This document shows positions 2,422 through 23,604 of a stretch of DNA of 64,000 nt, piece after piece. The number at the start of each line of letters is the position of its first letter. Position 1 is the first letter of the stretch. Position numbers and translations under genes: made by a program. The DNA comes from a virus (lineage: Duplodnaviria > Caudoviricetes). The stretch spans positions 1 to 64,000 of IMG/VR virus record IMGVR_UViG_3300048502_000142; one strand, given 5' to 3'. The notes under the pieces were generated by a model that saw nothing but the letters and a program-made list of their open reading frames with translations, did not search any database and was not told where the DNA came from.

Positions 2422-4238
2422 CGGGCGCGGGCGAACCGGTTGCGGGCGACGGTAGCCATCCTATTACGGCCGGGACCGGCGCCACCCGTGAGCCGCTGCA
2501 ATACCTCCGGCGAGGGGTCGAAGTGCGCGGCCATCGGCGCGAACTTAATCATCACCGAGTCGCCGAGGTCCGGCGATTTGATACCGTCCGGGGCCTTGTC
2601 GATCGCGATCTTTCCCGAGCCGTCCAGGGACCACGTTACCTGCGCTAGCTGGTTCGCCAGCTTCGTGAAGACGTCGGCGGGGATCCCAGACGAGATCGAT
2701 ATGATCCTGTCCGGCGGGCAGGGCTTCCCCTCCGTAACCCAGCGGTGCGTCAGCATGAAGCGCGTGCGGAGACCCCACCACCCCTGCGACTTCCGGTTCT
2801 TGAAGAAGTCCTTGTTCGTCCGCCCCTTGACGTCCTGCCCCTCGGGGTTGTAGACGGCGGCCGAGCCGACGAACGGCGTCAGCGCGATGCGCGGCTGCAT
2901 CTGCTTCTTGCGGCGCTCGTTTATTACACGCCCGTCGCCCGAGACGGCCGCGCCAGGGCCACCAGCGTCGTACCGCATCTCCGTCACGCCGTGCTCGTCA
3001 CAGACCAGGAAGGCGCGTTCGACGGTCGCGAACGGGTCGCTCCCCTTGCCCGACCATTCCTCGACGTGCTCGACCAGTATTCCGGTGCCTAGCGAGATGG
3101 CGTTCAGGTCCACGCCGCCGTCCGCGACGTCTAGAGCCGCTCCCCGGCGCCCAGTCGCTACGATCCCCAGCCTGACGTGCGCGTCCCGCGCCGACTGCAC
3201 CCACTCCTGCGGGATGATAATGCCGTCGGCCGAGGCCGTGTAGTCGATGTCGATCTCCTGCGCGATGATCACCGGGTCGACGATGTTCTCTACCTGCTTC
3301 TGTCGCCACTCCGACCCCTTGCGTGGGTCCTGGAGGTAGGAGAACGTGAAAACCTCGACGCGCCCGGAGTGACGCAGCTCGGCGAAGGGGTTCGCCATGC
3401 CGGCGGGCGTCGAGATGTCCTGGCGGCAGTTCGTCGTCTGCGAGAGCGCGGCGTCGACGAGCTTAGGGTGCTTCAGCTTCGCCGTCTCATCGACGAAGTA
3501 AATGGAATTTCTGCCCCCGCGACCGATCTCGTCGCCACCTTCGCCGACGATAACGGATCCCGTCGCCGGGAACTTGATGCGGAACTCCGGGGCGTCCCGC
3601 TCCGTCCAGCCGGCGCGGAACTCAGCCGGCAGGTTGCGCATGAAGATCCGGGCCTTCTCGAACAGGCTCTTCGGGTCGCCGATCGCGTCTACGTCGCGCG
3701 CCAGCTTCGAGCCGAACCCGATGGCGGCGCCGAAATTGAAGATGCACAACTGACACGACAACGAGACCGCGAGCCATGAGACCCCACACTCGCGCGACTT
3801 GTCGGTCAGGCCGCGCTCGCGGGCCCGCCACTTGCGCAGGATGTAGTCGATCCACTCGCGCTGCCGCGGGAACGGCACGAACGGAATGAAGGGATCAAGC
3901 CCGATGTCGAGATTGCGGGGGTCAAAGGTGACACCCCAGTCTGCTATGAAGTCCGCGTGGGCGTGACGGTAGTACTGCCTGAAGCGTTCGAGGAGCCGGC
4001 GGTCCGCCCGCAATTCTCCTAACAGCGCGTCCCGCTGCTCGAACACCGCATCGTAGTCGGGGTTCTTCCAGTCGAAGTTCACGATCGCCGGCAGCGGCGG
4101 GAGCGGGCGCGGGATCGGTCCCTCATCCCGCTGGCGAGAGGTCATAGGAGACACTGTCCTCCCCTCCCTCTGTCGGGCAACCCCGAGGGCGAAGAGCTTC
4201 AGCTTCTGTTCGTAGTTGAGCGAGGAGAAGTCGGACAT
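2418..4238 (-). CDS. terL: Terminase large subunit
   Basis: PFPRQ adenine motif, DKSRECGVSW Walker A, YFVDE Walker B, ISTP coupling motif, ALDVADGGVD and SPDLGDS nuclease motifs. Confidence 0.93.
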   Translation of the reverse strand: MSDFSSLNYEQKLKLFALGVARQREGRTVSPMTSRQRDEGPIPRPLPPLPAIVNFDWKNPDYDAVFEQRDALLGELRADRRLLERFRQYYRHAHADFIADWGVTFDPRNLDIGLDPFIPFVPFPRQREWIDYILRKWRARERGLTDKSRECGVSWLAVSLSCQLCIFNFGAAIGFGSKLARDVDAIGDPKSLFEKARIFMRNLPAEFRAGWTERDAPEFRIKFPATGSVIVGEGGDEIGRGGRNSIYFVDETAKLKHPKLVDAALSQTTNCRQDISTPAGMANPFAELRHSGRVEVFTFSYLQDPRKGSEWRQKQVENIVDPVIIAQEIDIDYTASADGIIIPQEWVQSARDAHVRLGIVATGRRGAALDVADGGVDLNAISLGTGILVEHVEEWSGKGSDPFATVERAFLVCDEHGVTEMRYDAGGPGAAVSGDGRVINERRKKQMQPRIALTPFVGSAAVYNPEGQDVKGRTNKDFFKNRKSQGWWGLRTRFMLTHRWVTEGKPCPPDRIISISSGIPADVFTKLANQLAQVTWSLDGSGKIAIDKAPDGIKSPDLGDSVMIKFAPMAAHFDPSPEVLQRLTGGAGPGRNRMATVARNRFARAR

Positions 4239-19450: not shown

Positions 19451-19942
19451 TCAGGTCCGCCTCCGGATCTTGACGCCCCTCTGCGCCTCCTCGTCCTTCT
19501 GGCGGCGCATCTCCCCGAGGTCGTGGGGCACCTTCGGGCCGGCGAAGTAGCTCTGACCGTGCAGGCGCACGAGGTTCTCCAGCGCCGTCTTCCGCTGATC
19601 GAAGGCGGCGACGACTCCGGTAGCGACGTTGAACTCGTACGACGAGTCAACGTAGGCACGGTTCGCCTTGATATAGTCCGGGTGATCGGCGATGGCCGCG
19701 GTGATGCCGCCCTCGGTTATGCCGCGGGGACCGGCGACGACCCCGTGCTTCTCGGGGTCCTCGCGGATTGCCTTGTCGACGCGCGCCCGCGTGACGTCCC
19801 GTATCTCCTTCGCCATGTCGAGTTCGCGCTGGGCCTCGGCCCTCGCGCGGGTGTACTTCAGCATCAGCTTTGGCTGGTTCAGCCACTCCACGTCGAGCGC
19901 CTGCTCATCGATCTCGATCTCTTCGTCGTACGTCACGATCAC
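19451..19942 (-). CDS. UvsY-like recombination mediator (putative)
   Basis: IDEQALDVEWLNQP, ITEGGI, AFDQRKTALENLV; helical; next to SSB and RecA. Confidence 0.6.
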   Translation of the reverse strand: MIVTYDEEIEIDEQALDVEWLNQPKLMLKYTRARAEAQRELDMAKEIRDVTRARVDKAIREDPEKHGVVAGPRGITEGGITAAIADHPDYIKANRAYVDSSYEFNVATGVVAAFDQRKTALENLVRLHGQSYFAGPKVPHDLGEMRRQKDEEAQRGVKIRRRT

Positions 19943-19966
19943 CTCCGCGCACTAGGACGTTATACG

Positions 19967-22615
19967 CTACGCGCCACCGTTGTCCCCGTTGACGACGCAG
20001 TACGAGGCGTGGACGAGACCAGGGAAGCCGCTGTCGTAGAAGTTGGAGACGAACTGGTCGAGCACGACCATCGCCCGCTCGTTCGCCCCCTTGAGCAATA
20101 TCACCGTGCAGTAGCCCAGGACGGCGCGGCGCGTCCGCTCCACGTCCTCGTCCTTAAGCTCCGCCAGGATCGAGGCGACCTCCTTCCACCCCTTCGCGCC
20201 GATCAGGGCGCGGCACAGGTCGATCGTCTTCGCCTCGGACGACTGGAACGACGCGAGCGTCGCGTCGGGATCCGCGATCATCTGCTGGAGCATCTGAATT
20301 GCGTCCCGGCAGTGTCCGCCGGACACCTCGACGATCTTCTGGATCGACGACCGCGGGATCTGCGCACCCTCCCTAGCCGCAATCCGACCGAGCAGCTTGA
20401 GCATCTCCGGTTCGGTAAGGAGATGCACGAGGAACGCGCTACAGCGCCCGCGAAGCGTCGGCAGGAGCTTCTCCGGCTCCGTCGTGCACAAAACGTAGTA
20501 GGCGTGTGCCGGAGGGTCCTCCAGGCCCTTCAGGAACGCCTCCTGCGCGTCCTTCGTGAGCTTGTGACAATTGTGAACGGCTACACCGCCCACGAAGTAG
20601 GACGGATCGTCCTCGACTTCTAGGTCGTGGAAGATCACGTATCCGCGACGACGCTCTTGATCTCTAATAATACCGAGGAAAGATCCGTCATTACAGCCTG
20701 GTTCGTAAACCTCAATACTCTCCACCCTAACGACGCAAGCTTCGGTACCTTCTTCTCGTCTAGCGTCCTTATGCGCTTCGAATTGTGAGAAACCCCGTCG
20801 ACTTCGATCGCTATCCTCAATTCCGAGTTCGCAATATCGACCTTGTAGTTGGACGGGAACCCGGCGTCCCCCGGAGCGTGTCCGGTCGGTATCGCAACCT
20901 CCGTCCTCCATCCCAACGTGGTCGCCAGAAGTATCTGCGGCGCAGTAAGCTTCCCATTGCCACCCCTGTTCCCCGACCGGAAAGCGTCTATCGTCCCATT
21001 TATCCGCTTCGTCACTAACGCCCTCGCTACGACCTCGGGCCGCGTGAACGGATTGTTCGTCTTCATCCGATCCGACGATGCTTTGCGCAAACGACGACCG
21101 CGCTCCGTACTCGAATCTAGGACCTTCGTATGGGCCTCGGACAGCTTCCTGCGGGTATCCTCGGATCGAACGAGCCCCGTCCGTTTGCGCCCCGCTAGGA
21201 TATTCCCACACACCTTGCCACACGTCTCGCGACCGAATTTCCTGGAACCGGCGAGGTAGTTCATCTCGCTCCCGCACACCGGGCACGGACGCGTCGGATA
21301 GTCCTTCGGCGGTTTCATCTTCCGGGACGAAGTTAGCGCACATAGTGCCGAACAGAACCGCTGCCTCTTCTTCTTCGGGACGAAGCCGTTCTCGCACGTC
21401 GGACAGATAATCTCGCCCACTATACATCTCCGCATAATCTTCGGAACCTACGATACACCGACCGACAGGCAGAAGCAAATCGCCGACCGACAATGTGCCT
21501 GCCTCTATCCACCTACCGTCCGAAGTCATAAACAAGTGTTCCAACGTCGTGTAGAGCGTTTGCCCAGTCGATAGACCCAAACGAACGATACGATGAAGAA
21601 GTACTACGTTCCTAAAAGTATTCAGAACTTTCGAGGGACCTACGAGACTGTAGACTACATCGCCGGGAACTACATGCTCGATTGGGCGATCTCCCTGCGG
21701 CATACTCACTAGAGTCCCCGAGGCAAAACACTCGTCGATCAGCCACAGGCGCCGGCCGCCACCCGTCCCCTTGTAGCCGGAGTTCCGGCGGATGTCGCGG
21801 ATCGAGTCGATGCCGCGGAAGTCCGCGCTGTCGATCTCGTTGTAATCTATCTCGGCGACGCCTAGCTCCGCAGCTATGAGGCGACCGATCGTCGTCTTGC
21901 CACAATTGTGATGTACCAAACCCGCAGCCCAGTAATTATTCCATACAGGCACATGAAAATCGAAATACGGCGCGCTCCCGATGTCTTCTATCTCTATAAT
22001 CCGATCGGTTGCGGACGATACGGAGACCGACCGTGAAGATTGGCCGCCCGCGCCTTCCAACGGAGGTGGTGTATCACAAGAATAAAGATAAGTCTGACAA
22101 TCGACCGGAGAACCTACTTCTATTTCAGAATAACGGGACTCACCTTGGAGTAGAACTCCTAAATCAGACGCCTCAATGGACAAAAGAGGGACGTTCCCGA
22201 ATCCTAAACCGGCAAGTTCCTTCAATGAAAGATATTCCCCGTCCTCCGAAAGGAACCGGTGTTCGACGGAGACGCAGACGACTGATCGAGCAGTTTTTAC
22301 ACGATACAGACGGGTTGAAGGATACCGGACCGGTGGCAGCGCTTGAGCTGCCACAAATCGACCGTCCCCCATCCACGACCACACATAAAAAGGGAGCCCG
22401 ATCCTATACCTTTCGGCGACGGACCTAACCATCCCCTCAACCGGATCAAAGATCGGAGTATCTCCTCTAAGACATCCGCTCGGACCCGCCAGAAGGTAGG
22501 CGTGGGGAGGGTCGGCGACGTCCAGGGTCGCCTTTAGGGTCTTGATCGTGTCCGCGTTCTTCGCCCCCGCCACATCGGCGAACGAGGCGGGGCGGTACTT
22601 CTGGTACAGCGACAT
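19967..22615 (-). CDS. dnaX: DnaX-like clamp loader AAA+ ATPase with two inteins
   Basis: MSLYQKYRPASF, HAYLLAGPSG/CGKTT, LIDE/CHKL, AFLKGLEDPP, CTTEPEKLLPTLRGRC, GHCRDA. Confidence 0.92.
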   Translation of the reverse strand: MSLYQKYRPASFADVAGAKNADTIKTLKATLDVADPPHAYLLAGPSGCLRGDTPIFDPVEGMVRSVAERYRIGLPFYVWSWMGDGRFVAAQALPPVRYPSTRLYRVKTARSVVCVSVEHRFLSEDGEYLSLKELAGLGFGNVPLLSIEASDLGVLLQGESRYSEIEVGSPVDCQTYLYSCDTPPPLEGAGGQSSRSVSVSSATDRIIEIEDIGSAPYFDFHVPVWNNYWAAGLVHHNCGKTTIGRLIAAELGVAEIDYNEIDSADFRGIDSIRDIRRNSGYKGTGGGRRLWLIDECFASGTLVSMPQGDRPIEHVVPGDVVYSLVGPSKVLNTFRNVVLLHRIVRLGLSTGQTLYTTLEHLFMTSDGRWIEAGTLSVGDLLLPVGRCIVGSEDYAEMYSGRDYLSDVRERLRPEEEEAAVLFGTMCANFVPEDETAEGLSDASVPGVRERDELPRRFQEIRSRDVWQGVWEYPSGAQTDGARSIRGYPQEAVRGPYEGPRFEYGARSSFAQSIVGSDEDEQSVHAARGRSEGVSDEADKWDDRRFPVGEQGWQWEAYCAADTSGDHVGMEDGGCDTDRTRSGGRRVPVQLQGRYCELGIEDSDRSRRGFSQFEAHKDARREEGTEACVVRVESIEVYEPGCNDGSFLGIIRDQERRRGYVIFHDLEVEDDPSYFVGGVAVHNCHKLTKDAQEAFLKGLEDPPAHAYYVLCTTEPEKLLPTLRGRCSAFLVHLLTEPEMLKLLGRIAAREGAQIPRSSIQKIVEVSGGHCRDAIQMLQQMIADPDATLASFQSSEAKTIDLCRALIGAKGWKEVASILAELKDEDVERTRRAVLGYCTVILLKGANERAMVVLDQFVSNFYDSGFPGLVHASYCVVNGDNGGA
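20570..21730 (-). mobile_element. Intein 2 in the DnaX Walker B motif (387 aa)
   Basis: LIDE|CFASGT...TTLEHLF...FHDLEVEDDPSYFVGGVAVHN|CHKL. Confidence 0.92.
20635..21420 (-). CDS. Zn-finger + Vsr/DUF559-type endonuclease encoded out of frame inside intein 2
   Basis: CPTC...FCSALC, CPVC...TCGKVC, SEDTRRKLSEA (NUMOD3-like), YKVDIA...IAIEVDGVSH...D..K...L..LGWRVLRFTN; GGAGA RBS before GTG 21420. Confidence 0.85.
   Translation of the reverse strand: MGEIICPTCENGFVPKKKRQRFCSALCALTSSRKMKPPKDYPTRPCPVCGSEMNYLAGSRKFGRETCGKVCGNILAGRKRTGLVRSEDTRRKLSEAHTKVLDSSTERGRRLRKASSDRMKTNNPFTRPEVVARALVTKRINGTIDAFRSGNRGGNGKLTAPQILLATTLGWRTEVAIPTGHAPGDAGFPSNYKVDIANSELRIAIEVDGVSHNSKRIRTLDEKKVPKLASLGWRVLRFTNQAVMTDLSSVLLEIKSVVADT
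21905..22474 (-). mobile_element. Intein 1 in the DnaX Walker A motif (190 aa)
   Basis: GPSG|CLRGDT...VSVEHRF...YFDFHVPVWNNYWAAGLVHHN|CGKTT. Confidence 0.9.
22009..22428 (+). pseudogene. HNH endonuclease remnant, antisense inside DnaX intein 1
   Basis: KIGRPRLPTEVVYHKNKDKSDNRPENLLLFQNNGTH matches the HNH_3 pattern; N-terminal part missing. Confidence 0.7.
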
Positions 22616-23604
22616 TACTCGACCTCTTCGTCGGAAAAGAGCTTGTTCGACCGGGCGCGAGGACCGTCCCTGGCGATCTTCTCGGCCTCCTTCAAATTTA
22701 GGACGGCCTGCCGGAAGTAGCTGCGTTTTAGCTCGAACCCTACGGCGCGGCGCCCGTTTATCACCGCCCCGTACGCCTCGGACCCGACGCCAAGAAACGG
22801 CGTCAGTACCGTCTCCCCAGGATTGCTCCAGAGGACGACACCACGATCGATCACGTCGAGCTGCAACGGGTGTACGTGCTTCTCGTCGTCCTCCTCCCGC
22901 GCCACCTTGAAGGGGAGCACCCGGTCGAGGCGCACGTCGTCCCAGAACGCATCGGCGTACTGTCGCCAGATCCAGTGCGAGTATTGGTTCTGCTTCTGGT
23001 CGCCGGAGAAGCCGCGGAAGCGCCGGAGGTGGTGGGGGATCTCGCGCTCTCCCGCGTATTCGAGCAGGCCGTTCGGGTGCTGGACGGGTACCGGGTTGTC
23101 GCCGGAGCGACGAAATATCAGCAGGTAGTCGGCGGAGGCCATCGAGCACCGGGACGCGTCCTCGACGATCGTCTGGTGCATTAGCCCCTTCTGCATCGTC
23201 CTATTGCGGACGCCGAGAGGCTCCTTCCACACGTGGTAGCGACCGACGTACGCCCACCCGAGGTCGCGGTGCAGCCGGATGACGTCCCCCGGGAAGTCCG
23301 TTAGCGCGTCGCAGCCGGTGTTGCCAGTCGGGACGTCCGCGCAGTGCACGAGGCTCATCCGGCCGGGCATCGTTACCCTATGCTTCTCCCGCACCACGAA
23401 CCCGTAGTGCTGCATGAACTCGTCGTAGTTCAGGCAGTTCGACAGGTCGCTCGGCGACGAGCTGTACTGGTAGAGCCCGGCAAAGGGCGGAGAGTAGACC
23501 GACAGGTGGACCGACGCGTCGGGTAGTCCCTTCATTCCCTCGACGCAGTCCCCGCAGTAGAGCGCGTAGCTGTCCTTCAAAACCTGATCCTTCACCTGAG
23601 CCAC
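22615..23604 (-). CDS. Amino (m4C/m6A) DNA methyltransferase, beta class
   Basis: GDC, SVYSPPF (motif IV), HVHPLQL, VLTPFLGVGSE (motif I), GFELK. Confidence 0.88.
   Translation of the reverse strand: MAQVKDQVLKDSYALYCGDCVEGMKGLPDASVHLSVYSPPFAGLYQYSSSPSDLSNCLNYDEFMQHYGFVVREKHRVTMPGRMSLVHCADVPTGNTGCDALTDFPGDVIRLHRDLGWAYVGRYHVWKEPLGVRNRTMQKGLMHQTIVEDASRCSMASADYLLIFRRSGDNPVPVQHPNGLLEYAGEREIPHHLRRFRGFSGDQKQNQYSHWIWRQYADAFWDDVRLDRVLPFKVAREEDDEKHVHPLQLDVIDRGVVLWSNPGETVLTPFLGVGSEAYGAVINGRRAVGFELKRSYFRQAVLNLKEAEKIARDGPRARSNKLFSDEEVE

Follow-up and report, generated by a model that had tools for sequence, protein, structure and literature searches.

Inteins are known in which the endonuclease is encoded outside the frame of the host protein, and for endonucleases placed in a different frame or on the other strand two recent preprints cite Gorbalenya (1998). 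The first describes actinophage inteins with an endonuclease VII-like gene in 'frame 3' and with antisense LAGLIDADG and Vsr-like genes (Gosselin, Arsenault and Gogarten 2025, bioRxiv 10.1101/2025.01.02.630785). The second reports a +2 LAGLIDADG open reading frame (ORF) in cyanobacterial dnaX inteins, with frame-specific ratios of nonsynonymous to synonymous substitution (dN/dS) (Phillips, DeSimone and Gogarten 2026, bioRxiv 10.64898/2026.09.14.751524). These papers report purifying selection on the endonuclease frame and a sporadic distribution, and propose that such elements originate when a free-standing endonuclease gene invades a mini-intein. A related arrangement is found in 'fractured' genes, where a free-standing Vsr-like endonuclease gene lies between the halves of a split intein, including gp41-1, and its 3' end overlaps the downstream intein part by 6–69 bp (Dassa et al. 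2009, PMC2677866). For the EDxHD family of homing endonucleases the prototype is I-Bth0305I, which cuts the allele that lacks the interruption (Taylor et al. 2011, PMC3239194; PDB 3r3p). Here we analyze a 64,000-nucleotide stretch (the window; positions 1 to 64,000 of the 91.9-kb viral IMG/VR record IMGVR_UViG_3300048502_000142, Caudoviricetes), which carries a clamp-loader gene with two inteins. Very probably, a separate endonuclease gene is overprinted in the +1 frame between the splicing regions of the second of these, intein 2, with both frames kept open.

The clamp-loader gene starts with MSLYQKYRP at position 22615, and its frame runs unbroken to 19967. An initial annotation of the window, made from the sequence alone, had described intein 2 as a stop-free intein in the Walker B box of this gene; our analysis agrees, with exact boundaries at 20570–21730 on the minus strand. 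The first residue of the intein, a cysteine, follows LWLIDE of Walker B, and its last residues, VAVHN, precede CHKL. The residues of class 1 splicing are in place: C1, the block B histidine H65 (TLEH), H386–N387 and the +1 cysteine. At the intein-free Walker B junction, the codons ...ATCGACGAG are joined to TGTCACAAG.... When intein 2 was modeled by AlphaFold2 together with 49 related inteins, two confidently folded terminal regions were obtained, separated by a linker (residues 96–330) almost without secondary structure. The initial annotation had seen no recognizable domain in this in-frame insert; in keeping with this, Pfam finds no domain in the linker, and the host frame as a whole matches only Hint/intein-splicing and clamp-loader families in Pfam and PHROG. 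The folded halves match 34 intein or Hint chains at E ≤ 1e-3 in Foldseek, the best match being the gp41-1 intein (6qaz, E = 6e-7, 30% identity). We conclude from these sequence features that the Walker B box of this phage clamp loader is interrupted by a contiguous intein of class 1 type, with splicing predicted.

The strand that encodes intein 2 also carries a 266-codon ORF, in the frame at +1 to that of the intein. Its product matches Pfam DUF559 (E = 1e-11; 45.1 bits against a cut-off of 20.6), as do 47 of 47 relatives. A profile built from ten relatives and compared with the PDB recovers 3hrl, a DUF559 structure (1.3e-12), and 3r3p, the I-Bth0305I catalytic domain (1.4e-4). With a 47-sequence alignment, AlphaFold2 models the nested protein at a mean predicted local distance difference test score (pLDDT) of 87.1, and the top Foldseek matches of the model are 3r3p, 3hrl and E. 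coli Vsr (1cw0/1vsr), with probabilities of 0.97–1.00 and E-values of 2e-3 to 3e-2. These E-values are modest because the nuclease domain makes up only ~100 of the 266 residues. Residues D200, E211, D213, H217 and D226, the putative acidic and histidine catalytic residues, are invariant across the 47 sequences, as are an RM..NP motif and GNG. Both Cys4 zinc fingers read by the initial annotation are present, as zinc ribbons. In the second of them C72 and C76 are invariant and C54 is nearly invariant among the 47 relatives, and C51 and C54 are invariant in a 10-sequence alignment. The Vsr/DUF559 nuclease proposed for the shifted frame is thus borne out by domain match and by fold. A NUMOD3-like motif (SEDTRRKLSEA), which had also been claimed, is not confirmed: NUMOD3 is not significant in the nested protein in Pfam, and only two of the 47 relatives reach E = 0.02. 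The nested protein is, by sequence and model, a Vsr-like/EDxHD-type nuclease closest to the homing endonuclease I-Bth0305I, and cleavage is predicted. The coordinates of these features are collected in Table 1.

Table 1. Features of the clamp-loader locus, in window coordinates
Feature	Coordinates	Strand	Remarks
Clamp-loader gene (DnaX/RFC-like AAA+), two inteins	19967..22615	-	PHROG clamp loader E=5.9e-44; Pfam DNA_pol3_delta2 E=4.5e-12
Intein 2, 387 aa, in Walker B, LIDE/C...VHN/CHKL	20570..21730	-	C1, H65, N387 invariant in 49 related inteins
N-terminal splicing region, intein residues 1-95	21446..21730	-	AlphaFold2 pLDDT 94-98, beta-rich
Host-frame linker, intein residues 96-330, stop-free read-through of nested gene	20741..21445	-	pLDDT 39-60, predicted disordered
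C-terminal splicing region, intein residues 331-387	20570..20740	-	pLDDT 91-98; VAVHN end before +1 Cys
Nested +1-frame gene, 266-aa Vsr-like/EDxHD-type putative homing endonuclease	20635..21435	-	DUF559 E=1e-11; stop TGA 20635-20637
Candidate starts of nested gene: ATG 21435-21433; GGAG 21431-21428, then GTG 21420-21418 at 7 nt	21418..21435	-	
Two Cys4 zinc ribbons of nested protein, C11/C14/C28/C32 and C51/C54/C72/C76	21208..21405	-	
Nuclease domain, nested residues 165-266	20638..20943	-	aligns to DUF559/3hrl and I-Bth0305I
Overlap, nuclease C-terminus over intein C-terminal strands	20635..20740	-	both structured and conserved
Intein 1, 190 aa, in P-loop of the same clamp loader	21905..22474	-	

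Relatives of the nested protein were collected by tblastn against GenBank phages and then by alignment-based scans of viral and genome contigs, which gave 160 loci. Family candidates number 138 viral and more than 414 genomic; the tally of layouts takes 80 viral and the 20 best genomic loci. At 92 of these 100 loci (75 viral and 17 genomic) the nuclease gene sits at +1 to a host frame that stays open over a long distance, and by a simple motif check most of the open host frames at the viral loci continue to ...HN/C or ...SN/C. Among the 100 closest relatives, the tblastn tally yielded no nuclease in frame with its host and none in the remaining frame. None of 59 remote, ordinary free-standing DUF559 genes has a meaningful second open frame. 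The host proteins are clamp loaders, interrupted at the window's site, DExH/SNF2-type helicases and terminase large subunits; the majority of junctions read DE/CF..GT...VHN/CH. Full-length relatives found by tblastn inside helicase genes belong to Vibrio phages, Pseudomonas phage MR14 and Corynebacterium phage phi673; Vibrio phage 1.088.O is among the cultured phages with the layout. Three GenBank records of cultured phages were examined (L001, MG592463.1; L002, MT104474.1; L003, MG324353.1), and in each of them an intein splits QDE/CHH and the nested relative forms an ORF of its own at +1 to the intein frame. These records list only a helicase coding sequence of 837–900 aa, leaving the intein and the 211–260-aa nested nuclease ORF unannotated, which agrees with the earlier expectation that standard annotation misses such genes. 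For the whole clamp-loader gene, megablast returned no match among GenBank phages; a single-sequence scan with the C-extein gave no confirmed relative, and an alignment was needed to find clamp-loader relatives.

Three relatives, L070, L073 and L100, are fractured genes, with the intein halves on two ORFs and the nuclease gene between them in the same register. In these fractured relatives 19–25 host-frame stops fall within the nuclease gene, as many as in the third frame, and they therefore provide a within-family baseline for the absence of selection against stops; the corresponding frame of the free-standing relatives falls in this range as well. It is on this baseline and on the 92/100 tally that selection against stops rests. 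A sum over 85 loci (no stops observed, 909 expected) was dropped as support since it is circular, the 85 loci having been chosen for being open.

Across the 266 nested codons of the window, the intein frame contains no stop, against 21 stops in the third same-strand frame and 4–9 in the antisense frames. When codon order was shuffled, or codons were resampled synonymously with the ORF's own usage, 10–11 stops were expected in the intein frame and none of 20,000 trials was stop-free; with the codon usage of neighboring genes, 5.6 stops were expected (P = 0.003). Both simulations hold the nested protein or its codons given. The G+C content at third positions of the nested frame is 0.71, toward the 0.85 of neighboring genes. 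The window is a metagenome assembly with ~65% G+C around the clamp-loader gene, and a second open frame could in principle be produced by high G+C or by two compensating assembly indels. Base composition fails to explain the open intein frame, however, because the intein region has only 50–60% G+C, and the shuffles put chance at P < 5e-5 to 0.003. The window DNA is near-identical in two peat metagenome runs. Over 19900–22700, contigs of the second run, from another sample and another study, are gap-free and show no differing letter; contigs of the probable source run differ by two substitutions, at 21972 and 22052, both in intein 1, and also show no indels. Since neither run has inserted or deleted letters, compensating indels are not seen, and the same register recurs at 92 independent loci, many of them AT-rich. 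An artefact of assembly or composition is thus extremely improbable.

Further insight came from the conservation of the two frames. Between the window and 17 relatives, identity at nested codon positions 1, 2 and 3 is about 0.55, 0.60 and 0.34. Protein identity is 0.37–0.49 (~0.44) in the nested frame and 0.18–0.29 (~0.22) in the host frame. Nested position 2 is host position 3, so that the 'wobble' position of the linker is the most conserved, whereas a host frame that encoded a protein would be expected to show the reverse. In two moderately diverged pairs elsewhere in the family, differences at nested positions 1, 2 and 3 number 24, 25 and 72 in one pair and 22, 19 and 73 in the other; in the same pairs 67–70 changes are silent in the nuclease frame, against 17–18 in the host frame. 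These patterns show that the nested nuclease frame is under purifying selection while the host frame is relaxed. Linker hydrophobicity is not below that of synonymous resampling (observed 0.257, expected 0.241; lower in 11 of 85 loci), and because this composition test is null, stop avoidance is the only constraint that can be demonstrated on the host-frame linker.

At the clamp-loader site, 76 of the 80 closest relatives carry an uninterrupted ...DE-CHK... and three carry an intein; the empty sites argue for mobility. Loci L166 (3095–4600) and L168 (3659–4600) stem from nearly the same phage and differ at 3 of 942 extein bases and at 10 of 1500 upstream bases. The Walker B site of L168 is empty, and L166 holds a 188-aa mini-intein whose +1 frame ends in a relic, ...LGWTILRFTN.... 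With one site empty, others bearing full inteins and L166 minimised, the states of a homing cycle therefore coexist for the clamp-loader site. One of the three extein differences between L166 and L168, GAT versus GAC, falls 4 nt before the point of insertion.

The nested ORF of the window could itself be a dead relic, its endonuclease inactive and the intein acting as a vertically inherited mini-intein with a long spacer. Such a history would fit the mini-intein derivatives at the same site, exemplified by L166; it would also fit the search for a close relative of the window's own copy, which found none, so that recent movement of this copy is not demonstrable. However, the ORF is intact over 266 codons, keeps all residues that are invariant in the 47 relatives and is modeled with a pLDDT of 87, and its codon-position pattern is that of purifying selection. 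We therefore consider a dead relic unlikely.

The start of the nested gene was examined in 84 unique relatives, in the sequence shortly before the first CxxC. An ATG with a Shine–Dalgarno (SD)-like motif was found in 51 relatives, an ATG alone in 24, GTG or TTG with an SD-like motif in five and none of these in four, the background frequency of SD-like motifs being 14.6%. In the window, the ribosome-binding site that the initial annotation had assigned to a GTG start is present. Alternatively, ribosomes in the clamp-loader/intein frame might reach the endonuclease by a programmed +1 frameshift, yielding a fusion of the N-extein, the N-terminal intein part and the endonuclease. Upstream of the first CxxC, the nested frame remains open over a median length of 16 codons, as frameshifting would allow, and the four relatives without a start codon and the 24 whose ATG lacks an SD-like motif point the same way. 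Against this, a start codon stands immediately ahead of the first zinc ribbon in 80 of 84 relatives, an SD-like motif is present in 56 of the 84, well above the background, and in free-standing and split-gene relatives the protein is encoded by a gene of its own; no slippery site was seen, although none was searched for. Frameshifting is accordingly an improbable source of the nuclease, slightly more so than a dead relic is an explanation of the ORF. The presence of start codons and the enrichment of SD-like motifs suggest instead that the nested gene is likely to be initiated independently, from start signals of its own.

The end of the nested gene reaches 35 codons (~105 nt) into the C-terminal splicing region. 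The initial annotation had placed the gene within the intein insert; this stands for most of its length, which runs over the disordered linker, and fails for the last ~35 codons, which run over a structured splicing region. In the overlap the nuclease frame reads LGWRVLRFTN followed by a helix, and the intein frame reads VVRVESIEVYEP.... Both segments have high pLDDT and both are conserved in the family consensus, and the overlap is what the mini-intein L166 keeps as a relic. The doubly constrained overlap therefore plausibly fixes the +1 register throughout the family, and on sequence and model it plausibly explains why that register is constant.

Altogether, the view of the initial annotation that a separate out-of-frame endonuclease forces both frames to stay open agrees with the 92/100 layout, with the selection pattern and with the contrast between a folded nuclease and a disordered linker; no compensating indels were seen, the DUF559 match is present and homologs keep both frames open. 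We hypothesize that ribosomes translating the clamp loader would read the endonuclease DNA in frame 0 as a disordered loop of ~235 residues. The flanking Hint halves would still fold, excise the whole insert and restore LIDE-CHKL. Other ribosomes would initiate internally, at ATG 21435 or at GTG 21420 behind the GGAG, and produce a 261–266-aa zinc-ribbon and Vsr-like nuclease. By analogy with I-Bth0305I, this nuclease would cut intein-free DE^CH alleles of co-infecting relatives, and repair of the cut allele would copy in the intein together with the endonuclease. Selection would then act on the protein sequence in the +1 frame and on nothing but stop avoidance in frame 0, save for the last ~35 codons, where both frames are structured and conserved.

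Several points weigh against this explanation. Pfam Intein_splicing scores 34.5 bits on intein 2, narrowly below the cut-off of 35.8. The ATG at 21435 has a weak SD, for which reason the true start of the nested gene is uncertain. The evidence for selection comes from relatives of 40–49% identity and from close pairs elsewhere in the family, the window's own copy having no relative close enough for a proper dN/dS. Contigs from a metatranscriptome library cover 20487–20723, 21562–21712 and 22021–22487; these cannot show transcription, strand or starts and are not counted as evidence. Finally, translation of the nested ORF, cleavage, and splicing across a 235-residue loop are inferred.

Some loci depart from the common layout. 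The clamp-loader intein of L015 (2256–4397), with its nested nuclease gene, has exactly one stop in the host-frame linker, at 3216. This stop may come from faulty sequencing, or the locus may be a recent pseudogene or a step on the way to a split intein. In L085, L095 and L096 (~2900–3650 of each), free-standing nucleases lie just upstream of intein-less DExH helicases and overlap or abut the helicase starts; from this placement they look like intron- and intein-less homing endonuclease genes beside their likely target. The locus in L028 is cut by the contig end. An 820-aa UvrD-like helicase, P0003, carries a DUF559 core in frame in a Walker B intein (VLVDE/CLPYKT...ILVHN/CQ), without the zinc-ribbon N-terminus. 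It is the sole in-frame form returned by a protein-database search for longer forms, and since the sensitivity of that search is limited, it is chiefly the tblastn tally that indicates how rare in-frame forms are. P0003 may descend from the overprinted layout, 'canonicalised' by indels.

Intein 1 of the clamp loader lacks an in-frame endonuclease. Antisense to it, a 139-aa ORF at 22009–22428 (plus strand) matches Pfam HNH_3 (E = 1.3e-6; 28.4 bits against a cut-off of 24.8), the match being confined to residues 16–39. This ORF could be an antisense or decayed HNH homing endonuclease.

Compared with the known nuclease, I-Bth0305I and the nested protein are both phage-borne and both place a C-terminal Vsr-like nuclease domain behind N-terminal DNA-binding modules; their identity is ~21–22% over the catalytic domain. 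The target of I-Bth0305I is the uninterrupted allele of a replication/repair gene, and the nested protein would be expected to have a target of the same kind. I-Bth0305I resides in a group I intron and has NUMOD2/helix-turn-helix modules, whereas the nested protein resides in the alternate frame of an intein and has two Cys4 zinc ribbons.

The fractured genes share with the window the endonuclease family, the overlap of the endonuclease 3' end with the C-terminal intein part and phage replication genes as hosts, and L070 and L100 show the fractured, split layout in the window's own +1 register. Unlike the fractured forms with their many stops, the window has an unbroken host frame that gives one polypeptide; its intein would therefore splice in cis, whereas the fractured forms must splice in trans. 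Fractured genes are defined by two ORFs bearing one intein half each, and the window intein, which is a single frame, is a sister state and not a member of that class. We propose that +1-overprinted contiguous inteins and fractured split-intein genes are interconvertible states of one mobile element, their register locked by the ~105-nt overlap, a proposal for which we judge the case evenly balanced. If it is true, the contiguous, stop-free state would be the common one, and fast split inteins of the gp41-1 type would arise by the accumulation of stops in the linker. L015, with its single stop, would then be an intermediate, mini-inteins such as L166 would derive from deletion of all but the overlap, and the in-frame form of P0003 would derive from indels.

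An element of this kind has wider implications. The missing endonucleases of many 'endonuclease-less' phage inteins exist but escape standard gene callers. Because selection favors a protein in one frame and in the other acts only against stop codons, the family offers a clean natural system for the study of overprinting, and its contiguous, mini, split and in-frame inteins make models of endonuclease acquisition and of split-intein origin testable. The closest solved relative of the window's splicing domain, the split intein gp41-1, serves as a protein-ligation tool (PMC10882715), and contiguous relatives that tolerate a 235-residue loop may therefore also be of practical interest.

In its general form, the placing of an endonuclease gene in a second frame of an intein has been described before, and inteins of this sort are common in phages. 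The published out-of-frame inteins resemble that of the window in being contiguous, in having an in-frame middle without a fold and in encoding a recognizable endonuclease in the other frame. A same-strand, +1, Vsr-like gene in contiguous inteins, or the size of its family, was not found in the literature compared. In contrast to the published examples, the window's nuclease is Vsr-like, is encoded by the same strand as its clamp-loader host and always at +1, and belongs to a large family that extends over clamp loaders, helicases and terminases. Any novelty would thus lie in the combination of a Vsr-like nuclease, the same strand and the +1 frame, together with the tie to the fractured split-intein genes.

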